Assembly: GCF_964204645.1 (NCBI RefSeq)
Contig: NC_134036.1
Coordinates: forward strand, 10,643,859-10,707,858
Source: Tubulanus polymorphus
Taxonomy: Eukaryota; Animalia; Nemertea
Length of the DNA: 64,000 bases
Direction: 5' to 3'
The notes under the pieces are model-generated. The model saw nothing but the letters and a program-made list of their open reading frames with translations, was not told where the DNA came from and searched no databases. The position numbers and the translations under genes were made by a program. Every line of letters starts with the position of its first letter. Within the stretch, counting starts at the first letter, position 1. Below are positions 28,413 to 51,442 of the stretch, piece after piece.

Positions 28413-28986
28413 AGTAATATAGGTAATGGGCTTTCAAGCCAAAGGTCGAACGGTCGAGCTCATTAAAAAACAAAACATTAAAAGTAATTTAAAACGATAA
28501 TATATTTTCATAACCGTGTGCATTTTATATTATAACTAAATATTTATTCTAAGATATCAATAATTTAAATTTAAAAAGCATATTGTATTAAATCAATTGG
28601 TCGCTCCGCGACCAATTGATTTATTTACAATACACAAATTCATATAATCAAATATATTTTAATAATAATTATTATTCTATTATTCAACTGAAATACACAC
28701 GGTTATGAAAATATATTATAGTTTTAGATTACTTTTAATATTTGTTTTTAATGAACTCGACCGTTCAACCTTTAACCTGAAAGCCCATTACCCCTATTAC
28801 TCTTAAAATAATCATATACATGAATAACATTTAAATTGACAGATTATTCAATATAAAAGTATATATTTACAACATTATTTCAATATTCATATTTGTGTGA
28901 GTTAGATTTTTAAACATTAAAAGTGTTAGTAAAGTGTGATTGAAATAATACATGATATAAATCATTGAACTTCTAAAATCAATTTA
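28413..28986 (+). repeat. Left TIR (~575 bp)
   Basis: Reverse complement of 50066-51442 once the MITE is removed. Confidence 0.92.
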
Positions 28987-29008
28987 AAAAAAAAAAATTG
29001 ATATTAAA

Positions 29009-32000
29009 ATGGAAGCAAATAAGTACTACTGTCCAACATGTAATATCAATATAGATAAATCCCAAAAAGCAAGACACAATAAAACTAAAACACATTTAGA
29101 GAATAAATTGAAATTAGAATATGAAGATGATATATTAGAAACTAAATTAGATGAATTAAAGAATGAAAAAGAAACATACAAATGTGATACACGTAATCAA
29201 TCATTCAGTGATAAAAGATATTATAATGAACATTTAAAATCTAAAAGTCATATTAGAAATAAGAATAATGATATTTTAGGTGAAGATTATTTTGATAAAG
29301 ATAATGATAAGAAACAGAAGACAATTAAAAGCATAAAAATAAATTAAACAATAAAAGACCATATATGGAAGATGTAAGAAATTATATTAATTCATTAGAT
29401 AATAAAAAAGATATAGAGATAACCGAAGCATTTAAAAGTGATATTGTTCCAGCAGCTATTGAGTTTAAATTTCATAAAGGAAAAACATTAGAAGAAAATA
29501 AAAAACATTTAGAAAATATGAAAGAAATAATAAAAATAATAACTGATGTTGAATATCCTAAAATAAGTATTTCATCAAAAGTTAAATTCGTAAAATCTGA
29601 AGATAAACCAATATATAATATAAATTCTCATTCACAACATATTATATCTAAACAACATATAGATGATAAATTAGATAAATGTTATAATGAAGTAAAAACT
29701 AAAATAGAAGAGAAATATTTTGAAGGATCTGGTTTAATATTTGATAAAATAATATTTATGACTTTACATGTTTATAACACAAAATATAATAAGTTAACTA
29801 AATCGAAACCAATTGATGAAAATAATGTATCATATTATAAAGAACCAGATATTGAAGCATCGAGTTATATTAAACTACCATTTAAAACTAATGCTGTTAT
29901 AAATGTACAAAATGAAGATGATAAATGTTTTCTATGGGCTATAATAAGTTGTTTACACCCAGTTGAAGATTATAAACAACATAGTTTTAGATTAACTCAT
30001 TATAAACAATTTGAAAATAATTATAAGATGGATAAGTATCCTGTTATAATTAAAAACATCCCAAAAATAGAAAGAGATGATATAAATGATATAAAGATAA
30101 ATGTATTTAATTTAATCAAATTGCCAAATACAAAAGGTAACAACATAAAACATTATACATTAGAACCTTTATATCTATCAAAAGATTATGATTCAAATGA
30201 TGTTATAGATATACTATATTATGAGAATCATTATATGTGGATTAAACAAATCGATTTATTTTTTAAATCAGAAAATGATCACCATAAAATATATCTTTGT
30301 AGAAAATGTTTACATAGATTCAGTAATGAAAGTTCATTATAAAATCATAAACAATTATGTGAAAATCATGATTATTGTAAATTAGTTTTACCAAATGAAA
30401 AGGATAAAACATTAGAATTCAAAAAATATGATTACAAAAATAAAGTACCATTTGTAATATATGGAGAATTTGAATCATTAAATAAAGAACTAACTGATCA
30501 AGATAGATAAGAAATATATTATAAGAGAAAGAAATTAAATTCTAATGAAAATGATTTTTCAGATGAACCACCAAAAACAAATACTATTAAAAAGATTCAT
30601 CAATCAGCTGCTGCTTTCGGGTTATATATAAAATCTGATTATCCAGAACTAATTGAAAGTGAATATTATAATTACAGAAATGAAAATGTTATCAATCATT
30701 TTTGTGACTTATTAATTGAATATGAAATAAGATTTAATGAAAAGTTGAATAAGAATATAGAAATTATAATGACAGAAGAAGATAAAGAAGAAAGTTTGCA
30801 GATAAATGTTATTATTGTGAAAAGATATTTAATTATAAAATGTTGAATTAAAAAATGAATATGTTAAAGATGAAGTCTATAATAGAACATTGAATATTTG
30901 GAATCATTTCAAAATAGAAAATCATGGGCAATTATTTATGATTTATATTTAAAATCAGATGTATTATTATTAACCGATATATTCGAAAGGTTTAGAGATG
31001 TAAATCTAAAATATTTCGATATTGATCCATGTCATTTTTATTCTAGTCCAGGTTTAACTTGAGACTGTGGGTTAAAATTTACTGATATAAAAATGGATTT
31101 GTTAACAAATATAGATCAATAATTATTATTTGAAAAATCTATAAGAGGAGGTGTTTCAGGTGTATTAGGTGATAGATATTTCAATGTAAATGATAACCCT
31201 GGATATAAGTTATTATATATAGATGCAAATAATTTGTATGGTTGGGCAATGATGGAACCACAACCTTATGGAGTATTTGAAATAAGTGAAGTTTTACAAC
31301 GTGAAAATAATGATAAATTTGATTGGAAGAAAAGAATCCTAGATATTGCAGATGATTCGGATACTGGTTACTTCTTTGTTGTAGATTTAGAATATCCTGA
31401 AGATAAAAAATTTAAATCTAGAAATCTAGCTTACTGTCCCGAACATAAAACTGTAACTCATGAAGAATTATCAAATTACCAAAAAAGAATTAAACCCGAA
31501 AATCATATTCATACAGAAAAGTTAATGGTAACTCAAGAAGATAAATATGATTATGTAGTACATTATAGAATGTTAAAGTTTTATTTGAATCAAGGAATGA
31601 TCCTAAAAAAGGTACATAGATATATTTCATTTAGTCAATGTAAATGGTTAGAAAAATATATAGATTTTAACAACAAACCGAGAACTGAAGCTAAAACTGA
31701 TTTCGAGAAAGATTTCTTCAAGTTAATGAATAATGTATTCTATGGTAAGACTTGTGATAATATTAGAAATAGAAATGATATTGAGTTAGTTAGTAATGGT
31801 AAAAGAATTAGACATTTATAAACATATCCTAAGTTCATTGGCAACAGAATATTTGATGAAAATTTAGCCGCAGTTAAGATGAGAAGAACTTCTATGAAAT
31901 TTAATAAACCAATCTATGTTGGCGCTTCAGTTTTAGAATTATCAAAATTACTTATGTATGAATTCTATTATAATGTATTACAACCACTTTTTGGAGAAAA

Positions 32001-32556
32001 ACATATAGAAATCTTATATTTTGATACCGATTCTTACATATTAAAGATAAAAACTGATAACATAACTGATGATTTAAAAACATTAAAACATCATTTTGAT
32101 TTTAGTAATTATCCTTAAGATCATGAATTGTTTAGCAATGATAATAAAAAAGTTCCCTGTAAATTCAAAGATGAATTAGGTGGTGAAGAAATGATTGAAT
32201 TCATCGGTATTAGATCTAAAATGTATTCATATAAAACTAAAGAACATGAAGCTAAAAAGTTAAAAGGAATAACCAAAAGTGTAGTAGAAAAGAATATTCA
32301 TTTCAAAGATTACATCAATTGTATATTCAATGAAGAAGTTAGAAAACATAAGATGAGATGTTTAAGATCTGAAGATCATGAAATGTTTATTGAAGAAATA
32401 GAGAAGATAAGTCTAAACCCATTTGATGATAAAAGATATATTTTAGATGATGGAATTCATACAGTTGCTTATGGTTGCAATTTAGATGAATACTTAAAAT
32501 TTAAAAGAGAAGAAACAAAAGAGAACGAGATAATGAAAAGAATTCTAACGTGTTAA
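29009..32556 (+). pseudogene. Protein-primed family B DNA polymerase with N-terminal zinc fingers; many stops and an apparent internal deletion
   Basis: INVQNEDDKCFLWAI, YIDANNLYGWAM, KLMNNVFYGKT, YFDTDS, KFKDE, RSKMYS, SLNPFDDKRY. Most of the exonuclease region appears missing near 30850-30900. Confidence 0.93.
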
Positions 32557-32899
32557 TCAAATTTTAATAAAAATATGTATTATAAATGGAGAGTAAACAA
32601 ACACACAGTGAGAACAACAAATTATTTCTAGATAGAATAAAAGATACTACAAATGTAAAATCAGTAGATTATAAATTTAAGAAGTTAACAGAATTAACTA
32701 TTCATAAGAAATATCTAATTACAAATATTGATACAGTTACTAATAACTATGGAGATAAATTAGTTATACACTTAGAATATGAAGGATTAAAAGGGAATAC
32801 ACATAAATTCAGTACATATTTACCAGATAGATTTCATAGATTATCAAGTGAAGATTTAGAAGAATTATGTTCTGGAGATTTATATTTCGTATACAAAGG

Positions 32900-35054
32900 C
32901 AGGGAAGTGTGATGAGATGGAATACGGACGCTTTTAATTGCCGGATGTAGGCTATTCAATTCAGCCCGTACATCAAAGGTTACCGCAACAGCAGTAAGCT
33001 ACGCTTATCGAGTGTGTGTTACCAGCTGAACACCATTCAACATCAACTTTGATTCGGTCGCAGAACAACCCGCAATAGTTTTAGCCCGATAAATGTTCTG
33101 CGATCGATACTACGCATGCGCACTGCAGTTCATTGAACAACGTGGAAGTGGCTGTGTATACACATATTTTTCTTTAGAAAATCGGCTGAAATTCAACAAT
33201 TTCTCGTAAAATTTGTCCAAAAAGGTATGTATTTTTATTCTTCTATATCTCCGAAACCCGGTATCGGAACATTAAGTATTTATATTGTGATTAAAGTCTG
33301 TTTTTATGTGTTAAACATATGTTTTTGCCAGTTCGTTCCGATTCCGGGTTTAGCGTTATTTGGGCCTTGAAGATGTCAAATATTTCGGCCCAGACTCGCG
33401 CAGCTTTCGTTTCTGACGTCATGTTGCTATGTTACGACACAAACATATACACGAAGTATGATCTTTAAAATGTGTATTTACTACATAATAATGTTACTTA
33501 ATAACGCTTACATTAGGCCTACAAATTATTGTCCCCCATATAAACCAAGTTGCCTAAATAGCATCAGCAATCTCATTTAATTAACCTTTTTTTGTTTTTA
33601 GTCATGGATCTTTGTCGATTGTGTGGAAAAAATGCGAAACCTCCGGATCGTCGTCCTATCGATAAAAATAATTTCAAAAGCCATGTGAAGGAGTTGTTCA
33701 ACATTGATTTTGATGATGATACTGAACAGTACCAGATATATATCTGTAATATGTGTCGTGTCAAATTACAAAAATGGCGTAAGAACAAAAACGTTAAAAA
33801 AACTGTCCCTGTTACAATCAAATTAAAACAATGGACATGTAAACCACTGGTTAATTCCAAGGTTGGACGGCGACTTATTTGTAGTCAAAATTTTATCGAT
33901 CGATTTTCCATAATGTACTGCTGCCATTCCATTTGAACTGAATTTAAATACTCGATGGTTAATCACTTCAGTCATAGCCTTTTCCAAATATATAGTGTTC
34001 CTGCGAAAATAATAATAATGATTATTATTTTAACATGTACTTATCTGGATTTTTTATATTATGTTTATGTATTATTTTCTGTATTCGTTTATTATTTTAT
34101 AACCTAAAAGGATTGTATTGATTATAAAAATAAATGTAAAAATACCTGTATGTGTGTTTTCTCGTGTTCAGATCGCAGTCTCTGGTCAGCTGAGCCTGAG
34201 AAGTACCTATATGAAATAGAAAAGGAAAGAATAAAGTGCCTGCAATTAGGTGGAAACTATTCCGATATTTCATTGATTCAAAAGGAATAACACTCACTAG
34301 AATCGGCCGAATTAGTTGATCCTGATCCAGAGGATTCCCGTAATATTTCCGTATCGATCTGAACCAATTCGTCACTATCAGAGAATAGATCGTCAAAATC
34401 GTCATCATTTATAATTTCGTTGACAACCGTTGCCATTTTAATACAGCGGAAAGAACCGATATCACGATTGATAAAACACTATATCCGTCTGAAGCGATGT
34501 AGAGAGAATCCCACAATGATAACGAAAAAGTCCAAAAATGTTAGTAGTTTATTCAACGTTTCGTCCATGTCCTAATAGTCATCTTCAGAAATAATGAATA
34601 CTACAGAAATTATGAAAGATATATACAATCCAGAGACAAAGAGACTAATTCAAGTAATCAGAGATGATACTAACTAAAGGAAAATTAACTTAGAAACAGT
34701 TACACGCTAAAACAGATTAAAGAGAAGCAGTTAAGAGACAAACTAGGGGGCACTTAAATTTAAGACAATTGTGAATACAAGTTGATCGACTAAAATTGAT
34801 GAGGGGAAATCAGGTGTTGAGTTTAACCAGTTTACAGAGGAATTTTTATATAAGTTTATTATGGGATGAAAAACCGATATTCGGAAACAACTGATTTATT
34901 ACAGAGATTCCCGATCTCGCTGGTTATCGCTTATCGGCGCGTTACGTAACAAAGCGCTCGCCGACGAACCGTTATCGGCTTTAGGGCAATTACAACGCAC
35001 ATTCGACAAGAGCTGCACAATAGCGTCCGTATTCCATCTCATCACACTTCCCTG
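32900..35054 (+). mobile_element. Non-autonomous DNA transposon copy 1 (33-bp TIR, 7-bp TSD ACAAAGG)
   Basis: TIR CAGGGAAGTGTGATGAGATGGAATACGGACGCT at both ends; ACAAAGG at 32893-32899 and 35055-35061. Confidence 0.95.
33604..33936 (+). CDS. Truncated zinc-finger protein resembling RAG1 N-terminal / Chapa domain
   Basis: LCRLCG...LFNIDFDDDTEQY(Q/P)IYICNMC; the matching region in copy 2 has a 1-bp frameshift. Confidence 0.6.
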   Translation: MDLCRLCGKNAKPPDRRPIDKNNFKSHVKELFNIDFDDDTEQYQIYICNMCRVKLQKWRKNKNVKKTVPVTIKLKQWTCKPLVNSKVGRRLICSQNFIDRFSIMYCCHSI

Positions 35055-35118
35055 ACAAAGGTAAGAATGAAAAAGGGCACCATGAAATAGATTTCGAATA
35101 AGAAAATACGTAAAATAA

Positions 35119-38104
35119 ATGGTAGAATTAAAAGAATACAGAATATTTGTTGATTCTAGAAAACTTACAAATTATAAATCTCATAATTTACTAGTTCAAT
35201 TAGATAGAGAATTCAAGAATTGTGTAGATTTAAAATTAGTAAATATAAATTTATGTAATTCTTTTTACAATATATCGGATAAAACTATTGAAGATAATAC
35301 TGTTTTAATTCATAATAGAAATGTAGATAAATGGTTTCATCTAATTTTAAAACGAGGATTATATAATTTAGATACATTAGCGCAGGAAATTAATAGAAGA
35401 GCTCGGTTGAAAATGGGTTCATCTGCTGGATTTGGATTAAAACTGATTAAAAGTGATAGCTCCGATAAAACAGGGAAGTGTGATGAGATGGAATACGGAC
35501 GCTATTGTGCAGCTCTTGTCGAATGTGCGTTGTAATTGCCCTAAAGCCGATAACGGTTCGTCGGCGAGCGCTTTGTTACGTAACGCACCGATAAGCGATA
35601 ACCAGCGAGATCGGGAATCTCCGTAATAATTCAGTTGTTTCCGAATATCGGTTTTTCATCCCATAATAAACTTATATAAAAATTCCTCTGTAAACTGGTT
35701 AAACTCAACACCTGATTTCCCCTCATCAATTTTAGTCGATCAACTTGTATTCACAATTGTCTTAAATTTAAGTGCCCCCTAGTTTGTCTCTTAACTGCTT
35801 CTCTTTAATCTGTTTTAGCGTGTAACTGTTTCTACGTTAATTTTCCTTTAGTTAGTATCATCTCTGATTACTTGAATTAGTCTCTTTGTCTCTGGATTGT
35901 ATATATCTTTCATAATTTCTGTAGTATTCATTATTTCTGAAGATGACTATTAGGACATGGACGAAACGTTGAATAAACTACTAACATTTTTGGACTTTTT
36001 CGTTATCATTGTGGGATTCTCTCTACATCGCTTCAGACGGATATAGTGTTTTATCAATCGTGATATCGGTTCTTTCCGCTGTATTAAAATGGCAACGGTT
36101 GTCAACGAAATTATAAATGATGACGATTTTGACGATCTATTCTCTGATAGTGACGAATTGGTTCAGATCGATACGGAAATATTACGGGAATCCTCTGGAT
36201 CAGGATCAACTAATTCGGCCGATTCTAGTGAGTGTTATTCCTTTTGAATCAATGAAATATCGGAATAGTTTCCACCTAATTGCAGGCACTTTATTCTTTC
36301 CTTTTCTATTTCATATAGGTACTTCTCAGGCTCAGCTGACCAGAGACTGCGATCTGAACACGAGAAAACACACATACAGGTATTTTTACATTTATTTTTA
36401 TAATCAATACAATCCTTTTAGGTTATAAAATAATAAACGAATACAGAAAATAATACATAAACATAATATAAAAAATCCAGATAAGTACATGTTAAAATAA
36501 TAATCATTATTATTATTTTCGCAGGAACACTATATATTTGGAAAAGGCTATGACTGAAGTGATTAACCATCGAGTATTTAAATTCAGTTCAAATGGAATG
36601 GCAGCAGTACATTATGGAAAATCGATCGATAAAATTTTGACTACAAATACGTCGCCGTCCAGACTTGGAATTAACCAGTGGTTTACAAAAATTCAAGATA
36701 CATTATGTTCCGCCATTCACATAAGCACTGCGAAAGATTTGGATAAAATGTGGGCAAAGTTTCATGTTGTGATAGTCACAGGGACAGTTTTTTTAACGTT
36801 TTTGTTCTTACGCCATTTTTGTAATTTGACACGACACATATTACAGATATATATCGGGTACTGTTCAGTATCATCATCAAAATCAATGTTGAACAACTCC
36901 TTCACATGGCTTTTGAAATTTTTTTATCGATAGGCCGACGATCCGGAGGTTTCGCATTTTTTCCACACAATCGACAAAGATCCATGACTAAAAACAAGAA
37001 AAGGTTAATTAAATGAGATTGCTGATGCTATTTAGGTAACTTGGTTTATATGGGGGACAATAATTTGTAGGCCTAATGTAAGCGTTATTAAGTAACATTA
37101 TTATGTAGTAAATACACATTTTAAAGATCATACTTCGTGTATATGTTTTTGTCGTAACATAGCAACATGACGTCAGAAACGAAAGCTGCGCGAGTCTGGG
37201 CCGAAATATTTGACATCTTCAAGGCCCAAATAACGCTAAACCCGGAATCGGAACGAACTGGCAAAAACATATGTTTAACACATAAAAACAGACTTTAATC
37301 ACAATATAAATACTTAATGTTGCGATTCCGGGTTTCGGAGATATAGAAGAATAAAAATACAAAACTTTTTCTGGACAAATTTTACGAGAAATTGTTGAAT
37401 TTCAACCGATTTTCTAAAGAAAAATATGTGTATACACAGCCACTTCCACGTGGTTCAATGAACTGCAGTGCGCATGCGTAGTATCGATCGCAGAACATTT
37501 ATCGGGCTAAAACTATTGCGGGTTGTTCTGCGACCGAATCAAAGTTGATGTTGACTGGTGTTCAGCTGGTAACACACACTCGATAAGCGTAGCTTACTGC
37601 TGTTGCGGTAACCTTTGATGTACGGGCTGAATTGAATAGCCTACATCCGGCAATTAAAAGCGTCCGTATTCCATCTCATCACACTTCCCTGGATAAAATA
37701 AGAATAAAATTAGGTAATGAAGATCAACATGCATTTATGGTAAAAAACCTATAGCTAAATTGCTAGGAATTGCACCAGATATTGTTACAGGAAACATAGA
37801 TGGTAATTCAAACTTAATACCTTACACGCACTTTTATATTTATTGCCATTTAATTGATCCTACAAAAACATTCGAAGCAACTAAAGATAGAATTTGTAAT
37901 TCTAGTATATTAAATATTTTACCATTAAAAAATGTTAAAAAATTTGGAACGCGAATAAATTATAATTTAGCTGAATGTGATTTTAAACCTTGCATTCCTA
38001 AATTTAATAATTTTAAATTAGAAATAAGAAATCATAATGGTTATTTAATTGATTTGAATAATTTCCCTGTAATTGATGAATTAGTTATAAGATGTAGAGA
38101 GTAA
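35119..38104 (+). pseudogene. Minor capsid (penton-like) gene split by transposon copy 2
   Basis: NSFYNI...GLYNLDTL..EI then LLG...YIYCHLI...ILPL...EIRNHNGYLIDLNNFPV. The halves join across the TSD, with one further frameshift. Confidence 0.8.
35471..37691 (-). mobile_element. Transposon copy 2, inverted relative to copy 1 (7-bp TSD GATAAAA)
   Basis: Same TIR; GATAAAA at 35464-35470 and 37692-37698; body is the near-identical reverse complement of copy 1. Confidence 0.95.
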
Positions 38105-38121
38105 TTTTTTTCACTATATAA

Positions 38122-38478
38122 ATGAATATAACTGTTGGACCGAGTATATGTTTTGGATTTGATTTTAAACGTGAGAAAGAAATGAAATTTAACGTTAATG
38201 ATGTAATTACACATATCAAAAATATTGCTTTTTCTAATGAAACAACATTTGAGTATGAAACAACAATAAATAAAGAAACTTTAAATGTAGAAAAGATTAC
38301 TAATTTAATTAGAGAATCTTTAAGATTTTATGAATTAGATGAAGATTTTATCATCGATGATATTAAAAAAATAATAATTGAAATATATACAAATGAAACT
38401 AGTAATGAAATAAATGTTGAATTAATCATAAATAAGATAACTAAATATTTTGATGATAGTAATTCTTTTGATAAATGA
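38122..38478 (+). CDS. Polinton hypothetical protein (118 aa)
   Basis: Intact ORF with TAAATG start inside the gene cluster. Confidence 0.65.
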   Translation: MNITVGPSICFGFDFKREKEMKFNVNDVITHIKNIAFSNETTFEYETTINKETLNVEKITNLIRESLRFYELDEDFIIDDIKKIIIEIYTNETSNEINVELIINKITKYFDDSNSFDK

Positions 38479-38701
38479 ATTAGTGATAATAAGTGGATAA
38501 TAACTGGATTATATAATGGAGCATTACTATCAGTTTGGAACAGTTGGTTATTCAATGGTATTAAAAAAAGTATTCAAAATGGGAAGTGTTAATGTTGATA
38601 GATTTGATATCAATGATATTTTAAAATTAACATTAGCAGTTACTTTATCTAATTTAACTATTGATTATTTAGAAAAACAAAAATATATTCCTCCCATATA
38701 A
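38475..38701 (+). pseudogene. Small hydrophobic Polinton protein, frameshifted
   Basis: TAAATG start; ITGLYNGALLSV/GTVGYSMVLKK...DYLEKQKYIP across frames. Confidence 0.55.
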
Positions 38702-38725
38702 ATACATAATTATTTTATTGAATAA

Positions 38726-39148
38726 ATGGCTTCTGCAGTTATAACTATTATAGGATCAGCAATTGTTAACGCTTTAGCATTTACTGGTGGCGGTTAATAA
38801 TTTAAGCATATTGATAAAAATGGATCATTAACAGAACAAAAAAGACATAACTTAGCATTAGAGAAATACAATAAAGCAGCAGAAGAATATAGAGAAAAAA
38901 GACAAAACTATATGGATTATATTAACAAAGAATTATATGATCAGAAGATTTCACATAGAGATTTTCAATCAGTTGATGATGCAATGAGTTTATATAACGC
39001 GGTAACCAATAAAGAAAAATTACATCTATACAAACCTAAATTATCAGATTATTATACCCCAAGTAAAGAACAACAGAAATATGAAATGATATGGATTTTA
39101 GGTGGAACTGTTATTGTTATATTTGTAGCATATAAGTTTACTAATTAG
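38726..39148 (+). pseudogene. Polinton membrane-associated protein with two in-frame stops
   Basis: MASAVITIIGSAIVNALAFTGGG**...EQKRHNLALE...PKLSDYYTPS, then a C-terminal hydrophobic helix. Confidence 0.7.
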
Positions 39149-39168
39149 TAATTTTTTTTGCTAAATAA

Positions 39169-39603: not shown

Positions 39604-39619
39604 TTTTTTAATTATATAA

Positions 39620-40945
39620 ATGGTAGATAGTTTTCCAAAAGCTTTCCAATATAATAAATCAATTAAATATAATATTCCAGCAATAGATTTTAATAAAGAT
39701 ATTACATACAGAAATAAAGTTTTAAATTCATTAATTGATTTATATATTTATGTTACTGAAAGTAATAATTTTCATGTAAAGATGGAAAATATATTTCATG
39801 TGTATACAATTAATTTCAAAAATTTAAATGAGGCATAACAATGGTTATTAAAACCTAATATGAAGTATTGGCAGAACCACTTAAATTTTGCTGTTTATTG
39901 CGCAACAACAGGATGTGGAATTAGTTGGAATGATCATTTAAACAAACCACGTTTACCATTGATGTTATCACTTTTTAGATTTCATACTTATTTTCAAATA
40001 AAATTAATATTAGATGAATTAGAATGTCCTTTACCAGGTTCAAAATATTTTAAAGAATTGAATAATAATATTAATTTTTCTAAGTTTTATAAAATATGTA
40101 ATGAATTTAATATTAATTCAAATAAAGATTTTAGAGCAAAATTTGGAACAATGGGTGGATTAGGAATATTGTATACTAAAGAATTTGGAAAAATAATAAC
40201 AAATTCTGATATAAGAACACTAAATTGGAATGAATTACCAAAATATTATAATAATATACAACAACAAAACAATAATGGTTGGGTTAATTTCATTTTAGAA
40301 AATAGTGAAGGTTTTACTTAAGCTGGTATACAAAGAATAAATCAATATATTAGAACTTATTTGATATGTATTCTAGGTGCGCAAGTTGAAACAAGATCAC
40401 CAATAATTGGAAATGATAACACTTCATTCGATGCGCAGAAACAATTCCAAGTATTATTTGAAGATTCAATGCATAATGATAACAATAGATAGATTCCAGA
40501 AAACATTGTAAGATATCAAAATTATTTAGATAAATCACATATTAGATTAAATTATTGTATAGGACCTAATCTATTAATTATTTCTAATGATTTAGTATTA
40601 AAGATGGGAAATATAATTGGTTATAATAATCTAATTAAAACTGCAACAATAAATAATTCATTTGGATTAAATGATATAAATAAAAAGATTATTACTACTC
40701 CAAAATTAATGGAAGGTGAAAAAAATAAAAAACACATTCAATCAACAGAAACTAAAACTAATAATATTAAATTAAATAATGATTCTAAAATAAAAGATTA
40801 CAATACATCAGAAAATATAAAAACTGATAATATTCAACATGAAATAATTAAACTAAATGATGATAATAAATCCCATGAAAATGCTAAACTAGCTTTAACT
40901 TGTATAGGAATTGTAATCGGAGGAATATTATATTTTAAATTTTAA
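39620..40945 (+). pseudogene. Polinton protein with C-terminal TM anchor, fragmented
   Basis: Three adjacent ORF pieces; WQNHLNFAVYCATTGCGIS...FRFHTYFQ...PLPG. Confidence 0.65.
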
Positions 40946-40961
40946 TTTTTTTATTATGTAA

Positions 40962-42577
40962 ATGGCAGAAGGTGGAGAAGATATTGGAATTGATACTTTT
41001 GGTGACGCTCCCGGTATAAGTGATGAACAACCAACTGATTTTGATGAAACAAGTCTTAATGACGGTGATGATAATAAAATAGAATATAATACTAATTTAG
41101 GTGAAGATGATGATTCCGAATTACGTGAAAAATTAATAAAATATTTAAAAGATCCTGAAAGTGGTAGAATTTCAACTAGAAGAGAAAGAAAAGAATTTAT
41201 GAAACTATTAGAAAAGCAACAAGAAAACTATCCTGATAAACCTAGGGAATTATATAAAATGAAATCTAGAGTAACAGATACAATTGTTAACGAATTATTA
41301 CCAAAAGTTGTAATACATGAAATTGATTCAGAAGGTGTTGTAGAACAAATTTTAAAAGTTGACCCATTTTGATTATTAATTTAGAATTTAAAAATGATTC
41401 ATGGTATTATAATCTTGATTTAAATAGGATTATTGTAACAATTCAATTATCTAGAATGGGTCAAGAAAATATTTTTGAACCTGAAATGCGAGCAAGATCT
41501 ACAATTGAAGGTTCAAAAGGCGGTAGAGAATTTCTCAGAATTATATGGAATGCACTCGATAGAATAAATGAAGAAGAACCAATTCCTAATAATGATATAA
41601 ACAAATATTCACCATTTGAAAATCCAAATCCAAATCCTACTGATGTTGATCCAGAAACATCGAGAAGAGATATTCAACAAATTGATAATGATTCAAGTCA
41701 ATTACAATTAACATTAGAATAAAAAATTGATAGATTAAGAGATTCAGAAGAAGAGATGAATAGTACTGGAATAAATCGAATGCAATCTTTACTAGAAAAA
41801 GGATTACTTGATTTAACTGATGAAGAATTAAAAGAATTTCCTGAACAAGCACGTAGAGAAATTAAAGGTATGCAAGAATCATCTGATGAAATTGCTAATA
41901 TTAAGATGAGATTTTCTAAAATAACCATGTTAGAAAAAGAATTAACTAATGCAGATGAAGAATTAAAACAATTAGAATTAAATAGAGATCATCAAGTAAT
42001 AGAGGAAGCTGATTATGAAAGCAGAAAGTTAGCTTTAGTAAAAGAAATAGATGATTTAGAATATAACATAGAATTGCAGGAAAAAGAAAAAGATACATTA
42101 TTTAAATCATATGATCTTAATCGTATTAAAAAATTAAAAGTTATTTTTAAAGATTTGTTGATAAAACCAGATTCTAAAATATCATTGAAAGATAGAATAA
42201 GATTGTTATTTATATTAGAAGGAATCACAATTCTTTCAATTCTAACAGCTGTAACTATGTTATTTACAACAATGGGTTTAGCTATATCAAATGCTTTGAA
42301 ATCTACTCCTACTCCCAATAAACCAGATAAACCCCCAGATAATAATTATATACAAGATAAAGTTAAGAATGGTTTAAAGAAATTAGCAAAATATTTATGG
42401 GAACTATCAAAGAAATCTGCTGCAGCAGCATTGCCAGGAATTATTGCATCAATTGTTGGTTTTATATTGAAATCTGCAGGAAACATTATTAACTTTGCTG
42501 CTGAACATATTATTTATTTTTAATTACAGTTGTAAGTGCTATTATTTTTGGGTTAGTAAACATGATCAAAAATAAAT
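40962..42577 (+). pseudogene. Acidic coiled-coil protein with C-terminal hydrophobic helices, fragmented
   Basis: ORF pieces at 40962, 41369 and 41756; GITILSILTAV...LPGIIASIVGFILK...AEH. Confidence 0.65.
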
Positions 42578-42599
42578 AATTAATTTGTTTGTTAGATAA

Positions 42600-43847
42600 A
42601 TGAGTGGGAGTTATATCAATCCTTCTAAGAATCATAGAATATCTAATGCTATTAAAGCAGAAAGATCACATCATATAATTACTCATAACCCTTCTAATAT
42701 TAATCCTGATGAAACTTTATGTGTTAGAATTCCTAGATTAACACAAAATACTTTTTATGTTCCAAATAGTATTTATTTATCAGCCGATATAAAAGTTACC
42801 GGTAATAATAATAATTATGTTGTTGATAATGTTGGAAGATATTTGATTAAAAAGTTAACTATAAAGATTGGTCCAGAAACAGTTTTCTCATTAGATGATT
42901 ATAATTTATTTATGCATTATAAAGATTTATGGTTAACTAAAGAAAATAGAAAAAATATGATATTTCAAGGCATCCAATCAGAAAACCAAAATAAATTAAG
43001 ATCAGAAGCACATAATGCAATATTAACTAATGCTGTAGAAAAATTGATAAAAAGTATATATGGAAGCAAATATAAAATTCCATTAGACTTTGAATTGATA
43101 AATAACAATGCACCTTTATATAAATACGCAATTCAAGAAGACGTTATATTCGAAATAACATTTGCTCCTGTAAATGAAATTGTAATATCTAGCGTTAATA
43201 AAGATATGAGTTATAAATTATCGAATATATGTTTAGAATATGACACAGTAACTGATGAAAATATTTCAAGTATAATTCAAACTCAATACAATCAAGGATT
43301 TTCATTATTATATGATTATATTGATAAATTTAAAACTGTTACTATTAATGCAAATGATGAAATAATTAATGAGAATATTATCTTCCCAAGAAGATCTATT
43401 AAAGGTATATTAATATTTTTTACCATTGCAACATATACTAATGGCGCAATAAATGTTGATAATTATTATAATCCTGAAATAACAAAAGTGGAAATAACTA
43501 TCGAAGGAATAGCAAATAAAATATTTTGTCAAGAAATGAGAATGATTGATCAATGGCCAGAAATTAGAAAACATTTTATGAATGAAAAAGTGAAATCATC
43601 TGAAAATTGTAACATTAATCAAATTGATTATTATACCGGTAATAAATATGCATTATGGTTAGATTTTAGAACAACAGAGGATAATTCATTACATGGTTCT
43701 GGAAAAAAAATACAAAACACTAAAGATGGAATACAATTATTCATGACAAAGAATAAAGGAATCAAAAATTTTAAAATGTACATTTATATTATATCTGACG
43801 AGCAATTAAATATTATAAATTCTCAATTAAATAGTGTTATGTATTAG
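42600..43847 (+). CDS. Major capsid protein (double jelly-roll type)
   Basis: Intact 415 aa, beta-rich; NPSNI...VRIPRL...VPNSIYL...NVGR..IKK...YKDLW...NICLEYD...YNPEI.KVEITIEG...LWLDFRT...LHGSG as recalled from invertebrate Polinton MCPs. Confidence 0.82.
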   Translation: MSGSYINPSKNHRISNAIKAERSHHIITHNPSNINPDETLCVRIPRLTQNTFYVPNSIYLSADIKVTGNNNNYVVDNVGRYLIKKLTIKIGPETVFSLDDYNLFMHYKDLWLTKENRKNMIFQGIQSENQNKLRSEAHNAILTNAVEKLIKSIYGSKYKIPLDFELINNNAPLYKYAIQEDVIFEITFAPVNEIVISSVNKDMSYKLSNICLEYDTVTDENISSIIQTQYNQGFSLLYDYIDKFKTVTINANDEIINENIIFPRRSIKGILIFFTIATYTNGAINVDNYYNPEITKVEITIEGIANKIFCQEMRMIDQWPEIRKHFMNEKVKSSENCNINQIDYYTGNKYALWLDFRTTEDNSLHGSGKKIQNTKDGIQLFMTKNKGIKNFKMYIYIISDEQLNIINSQLNSVMY

Positions 43848-43879
43848 AATTTTAACTTTAATAAAAATATATGTAATAA

Positions 43880-44647
43880 ATGGAAGGAGGTAAAGTATAT
43901 AAACATATTCCATACATCGATACACATGAAAATAATGATGATTTATATTATGTAATACCTTGTAATATAGCTTTGATATTTGATTCTATTTTCAAAATTT
44001 ATAAAACTAAACTAATAGAAATCGATAATAATAAAAGTGGTGTTGTTGATAATTTAAGTAATGTAATACCTTCTACATCTAATAATGTAATACCTACTAC
44101 ATCTAATAATGTAATACCTACTACATCTAATAATGAAATAATATTAAATGTTAGTGAAAATAGAAATTATTGTGGATATTGTAAAAGTGAATTTTCAAAC
44201 GCTACATCAAATTGGAATAAACATATGAATACAAGGGTACATATAAATAATGTTATAGAACGTGTTGGTTTAAAAGAATTTATAGAACACCCATTTAGAT
44301 ATGTTACAAAGTTTGTTTCAAATCAAAAAGTAAATGGTGAAAAAATATATGAAGATTTATTATTAGCAACACCTAATAAAGATGAATTAGATCTAACCGA
44401 TGCTAATGAAATATTAAAACCAAACACTGTAAATGAAATATTAGGAGCAAACACTAATAAAGATTCTATGAAACATAAAGTAGAACATAATGATAAATTT
44501 GATTGGATGAATAAGCATACCAATGAAACAACTATTGATGATGCGGTAAAGAAGGTGAAGAATAAGTATAAAAATAATGAAGAATTTGAAGAAGATTCGG
44601 TAGAGAGTTTGAATAGATTGTTAGGGTCTGATAGTGAAAGTGATTAA
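43880..44647 (+). CDS. Zinc-finger protein with 24-bp tandem repeats
   Basis: CGYCKSEF...WNKHMNTRVH; (SNNVIPTT)x3. Confidence 0.7.
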   Translation: MEGGKVYKHIPYIDTHENNDDLYYVIPCNIALIFDSIFKIYKTKLIEIDNNKSGVVDNLSNVIPSTSNNVIPTTSNNVIPTTSNNEIILNVSENRNYCGYCKSEFSNATSNWNKHMNTRVHINNVIERVGLKEFIEHPFRYVTKFVSNQKVNGEKIYEDLLLATPNKDELDLTDANEILKPNTVNEILGANTNKDSMKHKVEHNDKFDWMNKHTNETTIDDAVKKVKNKYKNNEEFEEDSVESLNRLLGSDSESD

Positions 44648-44677
44648 AATATTAATTATATTTAACTGAAATAATAA

Positions 44678-45050: not shown

Positions 45051-45063
45051 GATATATAAATAG

Positions 45064-45675
45064 TTATTTTATAAATTTATATTCATAGGGAAATTGTAGT
45101 CTCAGTAATAATTTTGAACCTTTATTATTCTTTAATTTATTCATATATTCATCATGTAATTCAGTAGGTATAATTTGATTTTCTTCCAATGATTGCTGCA
45201 TAGATTTTTTATCTTTATTGTAGAATAAAACTAGAAATCTTATATTCTCCCTAAAGTCTTTAACAATTGAATTATATTTTTGATTTAAAACCCATGTTGT
45301 TATCCCAAAATGTCTTCCAGAGAAAGCTAGATAACATATCTCACTTTCTCTAACTTTTGAATCATGTAAATTTGCGCAATCATCTACAATGAATAATGTA
45401 TTTGATCCTTTATAAGTATCAATTGCTATTTTTATACAATTATCTAAATTTTCTTTTACTGTTTTAGGATCTAATATAATAAACTTTTTTATCTTAACTA
45501 TATCTCTATTATATGTTTTATTCATTTCATAAGTAGGACAGAATAATATTATATTATCACAATGATTCTTATAAATAGTTTCTAACAAATCTAATATGAA
45601 ATGTGTTTTACTACAGTTTGTTACTCCAGTAACTAACATATTATGCGGTTCAAATATAAATAAATCTTTATTCAT
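45064..45675 (-). CDS. A32/FtsK-like packaging ATPase
   Basis: Walker A-like GVTNCSKT (SKT instead of GKT), Walker B FIVDD, SGRHFG motif. Confidence 0.9.
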   Translation of the reverse strand: MNKDLFIFEPHNMLVTGVTNCSKTHFILDLLETIYKNHCDNIILFCPTYEMNKTYNRDIVKIKKFIILDPKTVKENLDNCIKIAIDTYKGSNTLFIVDDCANLHDSKVRESEICYLAFSGRHFGITTWVLNQKYNSIVKDFRENIRFLVLFYNKDKKSMQQSLEENQIIPTELHDEYMNKLKNNKGSKLLLRLQFPYEYKFIK

Positions 45676-46780
45676 TTATTCTTTTAATTTTACTAGATAA
45701 AATCCATTCATTAAATTTATCATCTTAACCTTTATATTTCACCAAAGAATACTTTTTTCCTTTAAGAGTTTATGTTTTCAATACTTTTTCTATTTTGTAT
45801 TCTATTTCATCTGGATTTGGTACAAATGATAATTCTTGTTCATAGAAATAACCTAATATTTCTTCATCTTGTAGATCTTCTAATTTATAAACAAAAGGTT
45901 TAGTTAATATTATCTTTTTAATCTTGAATATTTCTTCAGTAAAATTTGGGGTATAACCTTTATAAAATGTTTTTCTATATTTAGATATTCTTACGTGTTG
46001 TCCAATTTTAAATTTAGGTTCTCCGAAATCATGTGTAACCAACGCGCCATATAAATTATTCCAAACTATTTCCGAATTATCTTCTTTTCTAGCTTGTATA
46101 GGTTTCATATTTATAGAACTATGTTTAGAATTATTATAACCTTTCACTAAATCATCTAACACATCGATATATTTATATGTTTCATTAGCAGTAAAATATT
46201 TCCACATTCTAGTTTTCAATGTTTTATTAAATCTTTCTATAATAGATGCTTTTTTATCTGAATGTGTTGAAAAATAATCTACATCGTTATCAGATAATAG
46301 TTTTTTGAAATGTTTGCTATAGAATTCCTTACCTTCATCAAATTGTATCTTATCTGGAATAGCTTCTTTAAATATAGATTTAAAAGCATTTGTCACTTCT
46401 ATACCAGTTTTACTTTTGATTGGTATACTCCATGCGTATCTACTGAATATGTCTATAACATTTAGTATCCAGAAATATCCTTTGTTGTATTCCTCTAAGT
46501 TCTTCATGTCAATTAAATCTGCTTGCCATTGTTGATCAATATATGAAACCATAACTTTTCTTGTTAAATAAGTTTTATCCATTTTCTTGTGTATTTGATA
46601 TGTTGGTTGATTTCGTAACCATGATTTTAATTCACTATATATTATATCACCATGTGGGTGCCGTACGGCGCCATTTTCATTATTAGATTTAATTTTATTC
46701 CATAATTCAGTAACGTTAGAATATGATACTTCACTTTCTGGGTTATAATATAAATCTCTTAAATATTGTTCTTTTTTCAT
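45668..46780 (-). pseudogene. Retroviral-like integrase with stop-interrupted C-terminal chromodomain
   Basis: WQADLIDM, IDIFSRYAW, FDEGKEF, IERFNKTLK. The frame continues past the stop at 45770-45772 as YKIEKVLKT*TLKGKKYSLVKYKG*DDKFNEWI. Confidence 0.92.
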
Positions 46781-46786
46781 CTTCTT

Positions 46787-47149
46787 TTAATCCATTAATA
46801 ATAATTTAGATTTAGTTTCAATGACTTTATGATTTGACTTATTTTCTGGTATGATAGGTTTATTATCATTGGAATCATCTTTATCATTAGATTTGAATTT
46901 TGATTTATATATTACACCGGATAATATAATAACTGTTACTAATCCAATTGTAATATATAATTTATAATTACTTCCAGCATTAAAAGAATCAGATGGATTA
47001 TTATCAATATCAGATAAAGTCTGTGATTCATTTATATCAGTTAATTTCTTTTTCTTAGCTTTTTTTAATTCTGCAGATCTTTTACCTAATTCTCTTGCCC
47101 ATTTAATTTGTTTCTCGGATCTAGGCTTCTTCTTAACTCCATCACTCAT
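46787..47149 (-). CDS. Basic single-TM Polinton protein
   Basis: Intact ORF, TAAATG start, hydrophobic LYITIGLVTVIILSGVIY. Confidence 0.65.
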   Translation of the reverse strand: MSDGVKKKPRSEKQIKWARELGKRSAELKKAKKKKLTDINESQTLSDIDNNPSDSFNAGSNYKLYITIGLVTVIILSGVIYKSKFKSNDKDDSNDNKPIIPENKSNHKVIETKSKLLLMD

Positions 47150-47750
47150 TTATTTTAGTTAATTTTTGTTCTGATTCATTTTCTGTTTCGACGTTTGGTT
47201 GTAGTACAGCGTCATCTGTTTCGTTCTTACCTGATTTATATTCCACAGGCTTGATGTTCGAAAATGTAATGACGCCAGTAGAAATTAATGTCATAACCGA
47301 TCCTAATTGAAATGAAGCATATCCAACCCATTTTTGTAATTCAGTCATAACTAAGTAGTCATTTTTCAAATCACTATATAATTCATTTTCATCATTAATT
47401 GGTATTAACTGGTTACATAATTTTGAATAACATTTGACAATACCATCTGAAATAGAATCATTTATTCTAGCTAATCTTGCTTCTTCATAAATCTTAAAAT
47501 ATTTTATTACTTTATCTGGTTTCATAGCATCTAATTCTTGAAAAGTAATAGTCTTAGTTAAAAACTCTCTACACTTTCCGCTAGCAATCAATAGTTCAAG
47601 ATGGTGTTTACAATATAAATAGTATTAATAATCTATATTGTTATTAACTTGAATAGAATTAGAAACAACTGGCTCCTTATTATCACTAATGCCCAAATCA
47701 TCTAATGTTTTTTCAATATCAATACTATTCTTACTCGATTTCTTTGACAT
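47142..47750 (-). pseudogene. Polinton hypothetical protein, disrupted near the 5' end
   Basis: TAAATG at 47750 upstream of the 149-aa ORF. Confidence 0.55.
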
Positions 47751-48311: not shown

Positions 48312-48893
48312 TTATAATTTTGTCCAGAATTCTTTATTTACTGGATTGTTTCCAATCGTTTCTTCAATTTCTGGTAAATGTCTTACTACTTCACTAAATG
48401 CTAATCCTAATATTTTGATTTTTTCATATTTTATTAATCTACCTACTCTTCTCAGTTTTCTTTCAGAACCGGCACTGATATCTATGTTCTTTTTAACCCA
48501 CAGCCCCCAAGAAATCCCCTCAGTTTCTTTATCAAACATTGAAAACCCTATATTTAGATAACCCCCGAAAATGATGTGGTCCCATAGGTGATTTGCTTTT
48601 CTATTTAATATGGTTTTATAACTTTTTTTTAAGATATCAGTAATTTCAGCAAATGAAATAACTTCTACACTTTGTATTTCCGGAAAGTTTAAATGTTCTG
48701 TGTCAATGATTAATTTAGATTTTAAAAACTCGTTCAACTCTTCTCCACTCATTTTCTTAGTTTTCGATTCTTTGAGCCCCAACAGCAATTTGAGTCGCGT
48801 TGCTGGTAATTTTGGTAATTGTAGTTCGCGCGGTAATTGTTTATTATGTATTACATCACTCAGAATTTTCACCATTTCTTGATGATAGTCCAA
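48312..48893 (-). CDS. Helical Polinton-associated protein (start uncertain)
   Basis: 193-aa ORF; FGGYL...W..WV..N..IS....RKLR...FW pattern. Confidence 0.55.
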   Translation of the reverse strand: MDYHQEMVKILSDVIHNKQLPRELQLPKLPATRLKLLLGLKESKTKKMSGEELNEFLKSKLIIDTEHLNFPEIQSVEVISFAEITDILKKSYKTILNRKANHLWDHIIFGGYLNIGFSMFDKETEGISWGLWVKKNIDISAGSERKLRRVGRLIKYEKIKILGLAFSEVVRHLPEIEETIGNNPVNKEFWTKL

Positions 48894-49376
48894 ATGTTCT
48901 TGTAATTTTGTGAAGTTTGTTCGTCAATTACGAGAGTTTCATCCTCCATTTCTATTGATTCCTGAGTTTCACTATCCAGTAGCATCGTTCCTCATCCGTT
49001 GGTTGGCTTATAATTTCTGGTTGATCTTTGTGTTCCATTTTAATCTAAAAGATGTCGTGAAAATGAATTACTGTACTTAAATATGTTTAAAGGTTTCCCT
49101 ACTTCATAATATATGTACTTACATTTAGATTTAGAACTGTTAACTGTGTTTTGAGAGAGAATATCCAATACGTACTATGTATGTGAAAGTTGATTTCTAA
49201 CTGCCGACGTAGCGCACGTTCGACCAAACTAATTATTTCTGCACAGATGTTCTTTATGATGAAGTTAATTAATTCTTTAGAATTGAAAACAAGATATAAT
49301 TGGCAACATATGTTTTAGTAGTAAACAAGAGGTATGTATTATATACATACAAAGCTCAAATAGAATTGCCAGCTTT

Positions 49377-50045
49377 CTAACCACTGATTAAAACCTCAGA
49401 ATGCGGTTGATTCTGTGAAATACTATTCCATAATTCCACAAATGTCTTTGCTTTATCCAGTTGATCTAAATATAACTGTAAATCTAGTTTATTAGATTTA
49501 ATTATGTTTTCCTTCTTTTCTAAAGGTCTTAGATTCTTCCAATTCCAAATAAGTTTTTTATTGTATTCATCATTCATGTCAAATTTAGAAATCGGCAACA
49601 CGTGATCAATATGAAAGTATTCACCATAATTATCTATATTCATTTTATCATCGAATTGATATATTATCCATGATTTGAGAAATTCATCTGAACAATCCAA
49701 TAAATTAGATAGTGTTTCTGAATGTGTTTCTTTGTTGAATAATTGTGTTAATCTAGATCTTAAACATTGTTTTAATCTAAAATTAAGATCTGTTTGATAT
49801 CTTTCTCTCATATATTCTGTCATATAATCATTATAAGCTTCTCTATTATCTTCTCGACATTGTTTGGTATATAGTTTAGTGCAAGTTTTACAGCAATATT
49901 GAAAACCATCTTTGCTAATCTTACGCTTACTAAATTCTGTTAAAGCTAATTTATCTAATTCACATTTAGAACACTTCTTGTAGTATATGTTTATGACACC
50001 AGTGTTATTTGTAATATTTATAGTTTGTGGTTGTTCTGATTCCAT
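49377..50045 (-). CDS. HNH endonuclease with N-terminal Cys4 zinc ribbon (giant virus/phage type)
   Basis: CSKC...F.K....KDG....CKTC; NYG..FHIDHVLPIS.F...NLRPL...EN..KSNK; intact. Confidence 0.85.
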   Translation of the reverse strand: MESEQPQTINITNNTGVINIYYKKCSKCELDKLALTEFSKRKISKDGFQYCCKTCTKLYTKQCREDNREAYNDYMTEYMRERYQTDLNFRLKQCLRSRLTQLFNKETHSETLSNLLDCSDEFLKSWIIYQFDDKMNIDNYGEYFHIDHVLPISKFDMNDEYNKKLIWNWKNLRPLEKKENIIKSNKLDLQLYLDQLDKAKTFVELWNSISQNQPHSEVLISG

Positions 50046-50065
50046 TTATTATACATATTTTTTAC

Positions 50066-51442
50066 TAAATTGATTTTAGAAGTTCAATGATTTATATCAT
50101 GTATTATTTCAATCACACTTTACTAACACTTTTAATGTTTAAAAATCTAACTCACACAAATATGAATATTGAAATAATGTTGTAAATATATACTTTTATA
50201 TTGAATAATCCGTCAATTTAAATGTTATTCATGTATATGATTATTTTAAGAGTAATAGGGGTAATGGGCTTTCAGGTTAAAGGTTGAATCGGTATTCGAA
50301 AAACGCCTAATGAAAAACACCGAATCGGAAAACGCATAACGCCTAATTCAAGTAACATCCAAGAAATTGACCTAAATCCCTACGTGAACTATGTACACAA
50401 CGCTACATAGTTCACGTCGAGTGCGTGGAGCGCCGCCTGTTCCATCTTCGTTTCTACTGTCTTTGGTTACGCAGGCTTATCTGTGTTATTATTTCATATT
50501 AAGACAGAGTATTATGATAATAAAAGACATCATTTTATGGAACATATAGTTTATTATTTTTGTTCAAGGAAGTTCAGGGGCTGGACATTATTTAGTCTCT
50601 CATTGGTTCGGTAGGTTCGGAAGATTAGCGTGGTTGTGAACATTTTTGGAGGATAATTTTGAGAATGGCTATTTTATCAGTCTCTGTGTGCGTTGTACCT
50701 ACGAGCGAAGGTTGTACCATATTTATGCATTCCGGTTTCAAAATTCAAGAAAGCCGGTTTATAACCGCGGCGTTTGTTTTCGCGTTATCATAGAAGTGTA
50801 AACTGTTTCAGTTTACACTTCTATGGCGTTATGTGATTGATCGCTTGCACGGCGGACATTCTATCATCATCCTATAATGAAGTTTATTAGAGTAGTAGTC
50901 TCGTTTCGTGAAGCGTAAAACACATGTATTTTCAAACTGTTCCGTTGATGAGTTGGATTGTGAGTCTCAGTAGATGGTGCAATTACGAAATTAGGTCATT
51001 TTCTAGGAATTAGGCGTTATGCGTTTTCCGATTCGGTGTATTTCATTAGGCGTTTTTCGAGTACCGAAGGTTGAATGGTCGAGTTCATTAAAAACAAAAC
51101 ATTAAAAGTAATTTAAAACTATAATATATTTTCATAACCGTGTGTATTTCAGTTGAATAATAGAATAATTATTATCATTAAAATATATTTGATTATATGA
51201 ATTTGTGTATTGTAAATAAATCAATTGGTCGCGGAGCGGAGCGGTAGCGAAGTGGAGCGACCAATTGATTTAATACAATATGCTTTTTAAATTATTGATA
51301 TCTTAGAATAAATATTTAGTTATAATATAAAATACACACGGTTATGAAAATATATTATAGTTTTAAATTACTTTTAATGTTTTGTTTTTTAATGAGCTCG
51401 ACCGTTCGACCTTTGGCTTGGAAGCCCATTACCCCTATTACT
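50066..51442 (-). repeat. Right TIR, interrupted by a MITE
   Basis: Matches the left TIR; ends CCCCTATTACT. Confidence 0.92.
50290..51066. mobile_element. MITE, ~60-bp TIR, 10-bp TSD AAGGTTGAAT (Mutator-like)
   Basis: CGGTATTCGAAAAACGCC...GGCGTTTTTCGAGTACCG; absent from the left TIR; second copy at 61651-62409. Confidence 0.93.

Follow-up and report, generated by a model that had tools for sequence, protein, structure and literature searches.

A nemertean Polinton and its relatives with a poxvirus late-type motif at their start codons

The element and its genes

The window analysed here, a stretch of 64,000 nucleotides from the nemertean Tubulanus polymorphus (NCBI RefSeq assembly GCF_964204645.1, contig NC_134036.1, positions 10,643,859 to 10,707,858 of the forward strand), contains at 28413-51442 a Polinton of about 23 kb, flanked by terminal inverted repeats (TIRs) of about 580 bp that are 96–99% complementary. 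Once insertions are removed, the element is about 18 kb long. It carries 17 recognisable genes, and TAAATG supplies the start codon of 14 of them. An earlier note, made from the letters of this DNA, had described an endogenous Polinton in an apparently non-insect invertebrate, and both descriptions hold: a DNA polymerase of family B that is protein-primed (pPolB), an rve integrase, TIRs, a major capsid protein (MCP) with a double jelly roll and an A32 packaging ATPase were found, and RefSeq models of T. polymorphus match one of the genes. By the definition based on pPolB, rve and TIRs given in PMC11296320, the element is a Polinton, in a variant without a detectable protease. Relatives were collected with an MCP alignment of the window and 55 of 120 listed homologs, which led to the best 80 of 148 metagenome loci and two genome-bin loci (82 loci, individually designated L001 and so on).

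The forward strand opens with a Beta-type pPolB gene (29009..32556, start TAAAATG), which has its catalytic motifs (DANNLYGWAM and KLMNNVFYGKT) and is 42% identical to the intact pPolB of L021 and L027. Stops, frameshifts and the loss of an internal part disrupt it, residues 443-639 of the L021 and L027 proteins being matched by only about 150 nt; as in the Beta class, Pfam DNA_pol_B_2 (PF03175) did not match. A small gene of about 115 aa follows (32586..35101), interrupted by a host transposon and homologous to 125-469 of L003; its nearest named cluster in the Atlas, Phi29 SSB at 0.83, gives a weak lead towards an SSB-like protein. The next gene (35119..38104) is split by a second copy of that transposon, and both halves match one open reading frame (ORF) of 254 aa in L003. 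No profile matched it; from its size, its position and a motif, it probably encodes the minor capsid protein. Six genes to which no function was assigned occupy 38122..42523 (starts at 38122, 38475, 38726, 39169, 39620 and 40962), four of them broken. The MCP gene (42600..43847) remains an intact frame of 415 aa, and its AlphaFold model (pLDDT 88.4) matches the capsids of PBCV-1 and iridoviruses in Foldseek with E of about 1e-16. The MCP has 573 homologs; a PDB sequence search with its profile gave 0 matches, and neither IMG/VR nor the phage collection yielded relatives of the MCP or the ATPase. The forward series ends with a zinc-finger-like gene (43880..44647; weak zf matches), whose start motif follows an A run.

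On the reverse strand lie the A32-like ATPase (45064..45675; Pfam Pox_A32, 5e-10), the rve integrase (45677..46780; start GAAGATG, premature stop at 45770, Pfam rve 1.2e-9, above the cut-off), two small genes (46787..47750; starts at 47149 and 47750, the second broken), a gene with its ATG at 49038, to which we return, and an HNH/endonuclease VII-like gene (49377..50045; PHROG 1035 endonuclease VII, 1.5e-15), the first inside the right TIR. Apart from pPolB, the integrase and the 49038 gene, every start reads T-N8-TAAATG. Among the window's ORFs, no Pfam or PHROG match to a maturation protease was obtained, and ORFs below 400 aa in the 82 loci contained no adenain-like motif, as judged by a simple pattern that a divergent one could escape. 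For an RNA polymerase, the six frames gave no DFDGD motif and no family match above the cut-off.

The start motif and its distribution among relatives

At all 14 coordinates listed in the earlier note, among about 17 genes, TAAATG was found with the ATG where it had been placed; the exceptions are pPolB (29009), the integrase (46780, reverse strand) and the 49038 gene (reverse strand). Its TAAAATG for pPolB was likewise found at 29009, and the T runs of 6–8 that it had reported before 38122, 39169, 39620 and 40962 lie 6–7 nt ahead of TAAATG. These numbers are far beyond an AT-rich background: TAA precedes 45 of 734 non-start ATGs in element DNA, with transposable-element insertions excluded, and 6.1% of the first ATGs following a stop in shuffles, and the enrichment at starts has a Fisher p of about 8e-15 (computed for 14/16). 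Missed by the earlier note was a second, upstream part. T occupies position −12 in 14/14 TAAATG starts, compared with 19/45 non-start occurrences of TAAATG in the element (p 9e-5), and the motif is bipartite, T-N8-TAAATG. Half of the starts (7/14) read AATAAATG. The frames at 38475, 38726 and 47750 are broken after 2, 23 and 41 codons, and intact relatives in L034, L003 and L001 begin at the same place. The claim that the TAA is mostly not the stop of the upstream gene proved too cautious: in 14/14 cases the open frame that it terminates upstream is no longer than 20 codons, and it is therefore never such a stop. The motif heads the first genes of units as well as both genes of divergent pairs (50045; L009, L010 and L034).

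A quick maximum-likelihood tree of the MCP (68 rows, made up of the window, 12 proteins and 55 loci in which the MCP frame is long; SH-aLRT support only, midpoint root) split a 25-row set including the window from a 43-row set. Counts of starts leave out L002 (a near-duplicate of L001), L073 (MCP identical to that of L074) and ORFs with less than 45 nt of upstream DNA. In the window's capsid subtree, TAAATG stands at 63 of 75 ORF starts (84%) from 16 loci, of which 14 close loci contribute 50/59 and two distant loci 13/16. Outside the subtree the values are 1/53 in 14 AT-rich loci and 5/286 in 47 GC-rich loci. A side branch of three intermediate loci, itself inside the subtree, has 0/11. The motif persists at 40–44% GC (L006, L008). 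T is found at −12 in 58/63 and at −13 in 48/63 of the clade's TAAATG starts, with 31/98 at −12 for non-start TAAATG; five separate lineages give 25/27, 6/7, 10/10, 6/6 and 11/13 at −12. TAGATG occurs at none of the 75 starts and TGAATG at one, a long upstream frame ends at the TAA in just 6/63, and A stands at −4 in 44/63. The motif is kept at 40–44% GC, is nearly absent from AT-rich outsiders and carries a fixed T at −12; neither an AT bias nor the coupling of a stop to a start nor a poly(A) signal explains it, and all three readings are rejected. It is a real, lineage-wide feature of the sequence, and a well-controlled one.

The change of start context can be followed from ortholog to ortholog. 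The base at −3 of the MCP gene is T in 17/17 members of the clade and a purine in 34/36 outside it; for the ATPase gene, it is T in 6/8 and a purine in 27/31. The opposition between T at −3 and the usual Kozak purine, which the earlier note had pointed out, thus extends to the relatives, with clade genes switching from Kozak starts to a promoter of the poxvirus late type. Homologs of the genes at 38475, 38726, 39620 and 40962 also occur in relatives without TAAATG; the genes at 32586, 38122, 39169 and 43880, of no known function, are restricted to the clade. The integrase starts at TAAATG in L001 and L034, but not in L005 or in the window copy. Counts of AATAAA and splice donors in coding DNA did not distinguish the clade from the loci outside it (ratios 0.95 and 0.89), AATAAA being depleted in neither, and do not discriminate between nuclear and cytoplasmic transcription.

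Several features of the relatives are recorded here as separate observations. In the side branch (L014, L053 and L076), TATAG, TATAAT or TATAC closely precedes the ATG at several starts, resembling the TATA initiator of asfarviruses, in these three loci only. AT-rich outsiders (L021, L025, L051, L052 and L081) start at TATAAAAAATG or TAAAAATG runs, and AAA precedes the ATG in 32/53 starts of the 14 AT-rich loci, which may represent a strong Kozak context or another initiator. At 10340-10981 of L003, the same promoter stands before the gene of a deoxynucleoside kinase (Pfam dNK, 1.7e-31), which would be of use in making DNA in the cytoplasm; a search with it returned 38 matches, none named viral, and one IMG/VR contig without the motif pattern. 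In the P0044 cluster, MCPs belonging to the TAAATG clade are labelled Bartonella; their contigs, 0.5–1.6 kb long, are probably animal DNA in bacterial bins.

A pox-type helper and the alternatives

The poxvirus control consisted of 20-kb blocks around G8R, with 146 TAAATG starts from 17 of 25 chordopoxvirus loci (8 close duplicates removed). The chordopoxvirus profile is A-rich at −19..−15, has almost no G/C at −15..−13 and a T peak at −13 (0.72, with 0.53 at −12). That of the clade is A-rich at −18..−16, has almost no G/C at −16..−12 and peaks in T at −12 (0.92, with 0.76 at −13); both have G or A at +4. Correlation between the two T profiles is highest without a shift (r 0.65, with 0.56 at +1). 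The likeness to poxvirus intermediate and late promoters thus comprises TAAATG over the start, G or A at +4 and a G/C-free A-then-T core one helical turn upstream, and vaccinia G8R shares the TAAAATG start form of the element's pPolB. In vaccinia late promoters, TAAAT(G) is described as overlapping the start codon, with a conserved T that lies ten bases upstream of TAAAT (PMC11980589); the clade profile agrees with this at an offset of one base. TAAATG is also reported from a fish poxvirus and an entomopoxvirus (PMC4542343, PMC3061580). The late motifs given for other large viruses are different, namely TATATA in asfarviruses and pacmanvirus, TCTA in CroV and that of mimivirus (PMC5294985, PMC11788076). 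The element differs from poxviruses in the position of its T peak, which is also more fixed, in the share of clade ORFs that bear the motif, and in encoding neither polymerase nor transcription factors. A candidate poxvirus early motif, AAAATTGA before pPolB (28994), was rejected: it is absent from the second copy and present at three other element sites.

One gene departs from the pattern. The exception gene (48312..49204, reverse strand; ATG at 49038, frameshifted in this copy) lacks TAAATG, and its anatomy looks Pol II-like and host-type: an initiator-like GCAGTT at 49204, a putative intron in the 5′ untranslated region predicted from the sequence (49122-49045, GTAAGT...TTTAG), A at −3 and AATAAA downstream. 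Its GC content at third codon positions (0.27) is the highest of the element, other genes having 0.06–0.21. Three AATAAA also lie inside the gene, and the host-type reading is an indirect one. Seven T. polymorphus RefSeq models match it, with up to 98% identity, and six of them align from residue 1 at 49038; among the 120 best matches of the MCP, no model named Tubulanus was present and none exceeded 76% identity. The gene has no homolog in the 82 related loci and so may be host-adapted or captured. Its features would fit a latent, nuclear role. A variant with a 261-bp deletion is present as DNA in other copies.

We propose, with a probability of about 0.6, that this virophage-like Polinton lineage is transcribed by the RNA polymerase of a pox-type cytoplasmic helper; the sequence evidence strongly suggests a helper-dependent mechanism. 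The earlier note had assigned transcription of the element to a pox-like or other giant-virus polymerase. A motif beyond chance, its restriction to one subtree, the poxvirus-like profile and the lack of a polymerase of its own support this assignment in part, but one gene looks host-transcribed, and the claim does not cover the whole element. Because this copy is dead, the helper system is proposed for the lineage and not for the copy. In the hypothetical sequence of events, (i) the provirus would be mostly silent in the nucleus, where at most the 49038 gene would be read by host Pol II; (ii) upon helper infection, element DNA would enter the cytoplasmic factory, where the A/T core would be bound by intermediate or late factors and transcription by the viral polymerase would begin inside TAAA; (iii) slippage on AAA would produce a 5′ poly(A) leader, so that A rather than T would stand at −3 of the message and the Kozak clash would be gone; (iv) pPolB would copy the genome, which the MCP, the minor capsid protein and the ATPase would package; and (v) the integrase would make new host copies, the lineage residing in the host genome between helper infections. 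Published accounts describe poxviral RNA polymerase as reading TAAA itself (PMC12917281), the poly(A) leader as arising by polymerase slippage (PMC6211774), and integrated virophages with helper-like late promoters as those reactivated on infection (10.1101/2025.10.09.676808).

Several results weigh against this proposal. The T peak of the clade lies one base closer to the start than that of chordopoxviruses, and the poxvirus control is a single 20-kb block with 4–13 orthologous genes and no entomopoxvirus. TAAATG starts approximately 20–55% of ORFs in the poxvirus blocks compared with 84% in the clade, and a gene-wise split into A-rich (intermediate-like) and T-rich (late-like) starts is too weak to be claimed (p 0.03). 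On its coding strands, the close clade has fewer TTTTTNT than expected (10 observed, 33.8 expected, four sub-clades), whereas poxvirus TAAATG genes show no loss (9 vs 11.5); a programme that is late only would not predict this. The depletion is not significant in the window alone (3 vs 5.7) or in L034 (3 vs 3.8). The loci are kin, so p-values overstate their independence, and the quick tree, made without bootstrap, leaves one versus two gains of the motif unsettled. A hunt for the helper through VLTF-1 (G8R) among 1.84 billion representatives gave five matches, none pointing to an invertebrate virus, and accessory-gene searches gave no pox link. Transcription is reported for coral polintoviruses in an account that names no helper (PMC11131425; the comparison of clades did not include theirs). 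Beside these points, we observed in L001, L003-L013 and L015 that TTTTTNT and T runs of at least 6 are depleted on coding strands and more mildly on the other strand (AT-rich outsiders, 27 vs 30.3); the coding-strand loss suggests T-rich termination signals.

The same evidence bears on three other explanations. The one-base offset and a motif stricter than in chordopoxviruses would suit a helper from outside the poxvirus lineage, be it another nucleocytovirus or a member of an undescribed group, whose initiator is also fused to the start codon. Such a helper would equally agree with the failure to find a pox-like virus for these hosts, and with the HNH/endonuclease VII gene of the window and the kinase of L003, both common among large viruses. 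We nevertheless regard it as unlikely: the published late motifs of asfarviruses and pacmanvirus, CroV and mimivirus differ, as described above, the form found in poxviruses is TAAAT(G) with a T tract upstream, and the correlation of the two profiles is best unshifted. A by-product of compact gene packing, in which the motif would stem from an upstream AATAAA poly(A) signal, from stop-start coupling or from an in-frame stop blocking read-in, is very improbable. The closeness of the genes, the seven AATAAATG starts and the frequent A at −4 among relatives would agree with it, but the TAA is the upstream stop in 0/14 and at most 6/63 cases and TAG or TGA never takes its place. Packing also leaves the fixed T at −12 unexplained and conflicts with the motif at the first genes of units and at both genes of divergent pairs, and outside relatives that are equally compact and AT-rich do without it.

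It is also improbable, if somewhat less so, that the element is autonomous in the nucleus, with Pol II (or III) of the host starting at or near the motif, perhaps under the direction of a factor that the element encodes, and producing leaderless or very short-leader messages. The clade-restricted genes of no known function could include such a factor, the element meets host machinery, as judged from its one gene with Pol II anatomy, and the family reached a high copy number in the host. However, Pol II is described as starting 25–30 nt after a TATA box (PMC5294985), which would here fall inside the coding frame, and T at −3 violates the Kozak rule, which the same genes follow in outside relatives. 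Host models named Tubulanus, moreover, number seven for the exception gene and none among the 120 best MCP matches, a difference to which annotation bias may contribute.

Transcription by a pox-type helper would matter because animal Polintons are usually taken as autonomous and nuclear, and because it bears on how they are transcribed and on whether any of them depend on another virus. It would carry over to animals the mavirus–CroV arrangement, in which an integrated parasite stands under its helper's late promoter. Our full-text literature searches, whose scope did not extend to subscription papers, Repbase reports and supplements, found no report of poxvirus-type promoters in Polintons, and the word 'promoter' is absent from the main texts on entomopoxvirus-associated Polinton-like viruses (PLVs; PMC11296320), adintoviruses (PMC8502044), coral polintoviruses (PMC11131425) and egovirus, and from those of two 2026 PLV surveys. 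The clade leads one to expect a pox-type virus among lophotrochozoan hosts, whereas described poxviruses come, according to PMC4542343, from vertebrates and insects. The start context could also serve to infer the lifestyle of endogenous Polintons, of which there are thousands. A wider claim, which we consider rather doubtful, is that this widespread animal Polinton clade consists of integrating virophages whose helpers form an undiscovered lineage of poxviruses in marine invertebrates, with a two-programme provirus, a germ-line defence and a start-context barcode all together. If so, the provirus would combine one spliced, host-transcribed gene in latency with a poxvirus-late programme for all others, hundreds of germ-line copies could have acted as an infection-triggered defence of the animal, as mavirus does in Cafeteria, and the context of the start codon would sort Polinton clades by helper virus.

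Related systems and the state of this copy

Mavirus and the endogenous mavirus-like elements (EMALEs) of Cafeteria are likewise described as integrating elements with pPolB and rve whose genes stand under a late-type promoter of a large virus (10.1101/2025.10.09.676808, PMC11161782). Here, by contrast, the host is an animal, the capsid belongs to the Polinton family, no protease was found, the motif is pox-type instead of the TCTA of CroV, and dependence on a helper is deduced from promoters only. In its way of working, the element is likely a counterpart of mavirus whose partner is of the pox type. Membership of the virophage class (Maveriviricetes/Lavidaviridae) was rejected: no protease was found in the element, and in the viral fold search nucleocytovirus capsids come above those of virophages, which take ranks 35 and 39. 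The earlier note had pointed to PLVs tied to entomopoxviruses, reported in insects. These are also small double-jelly-roll viruses proposed as poxvirus parasites (Barth et al. 2024, PMC11296320), but as described there they are about 12 kb long, with an adenovirus-type protease and no rve; the present element, with its greater length, its rve, no protease found and a nemertean host, is set apart by gene content. Animal Polintons or Mavericks with Beta-type pPolB, such as the adintoviruses (PMC8502044) and coral polintoviruses (PMC11131425), share with the element, in these accounts, pPolB, rve, A32 ATPase, MCP, TIRs and multi-copy germ-line insertion. Unlike in adintoviruses (PMC8502044), no adenain was found here, and outside relatives with the same core genes hold Kozak starts. 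The yeast cytoplasmic elements pGKL1/2 are linear, with pPolB, a TAAAN initiator and 5′ poly(A) leaders (PMC6211774); they have their own RNA polymerase and capping enzyme but no capsid or integrase, whereas the element has a capsid and integrase but no polymerase.

The left TIR (28413..28994; traced from inverted repeats I4, I5, I8, I19 and I21) begins with AGTAAT, and the right TIR (50058..51442) ends with ATTACT and is split by a miniature inverted-repeat transposable element (MITE) at 50289-51067, a second copy of which lies near 61650-62409. The first 389 bp of the left TIR (28413-28801) form an imperfect palindrome with a fold z of −20.3. Such a palindrome of about 390 bp ends each TIR (28413-28801; 50251-51442), with an incompletely paired AT-rich middle and both arms beginning AGTAAT; it is reminiscent of hairpin ends, which are unusual alongside a protein-primed polymerase. 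A concatemer-resolution-like motif was sought in the TIRs and rejected, with loose matches only. ACAATG stands directly 3′ of the right end and also 14 nt before the left end, not flush; a 6-bp target-site duplication is a hallmark of Polintons.

Two copies of a host DNA transposon, overlooked by the earlier note, make up 4.4 kb of 28413-51442 and are not part of the Polinton. Copy 1 (32900..35054) has CAGGG...CCCTG ends, a 7-bp target duplication (ACAAAGG) and a zf-AD ORF; copy 2 (35471..37691) is inverted relative to it, with the 7-bp duplication GATAAAA. With 416 bp between them, the two inverted 2.2-kb copies look like a single foldback element. In a DNA run of the same species, copy 1 is missing from 339 reads, which join 32892 to 35055, and copy 2 is bypassed by reads and one contig joining 35463 to 37692. 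The same run contains 403 reads that join across the MITE, as well as unrelated loose ends at 28413 in 822 reads and at 51442 in 1738 reads. Since reads span all three insertions and stop at both termini with unrelated flanks, the element is one dead copy of a multi-copy family. A rearranged fragment of a second copy from the same family follows at 51794..52900 (forward strand), composed of end sequence, part of the 32586 gene and the start of pPolB (direct repeats D1, D2, D9, D11, D15 and D20).

Between the converging units, 44650-45060 contains a block in duplicate, each copy comprising a G run and a AATAGGGTATCT-like repeat array, possibly a termination region or an origin. Outside the element, 846-7516 and 18238-19325 (both reverse strand) include exons of the host that encode fibronectin III and F5/8 lectin-like domains, together with a piggyBac-type transposase that is broken.

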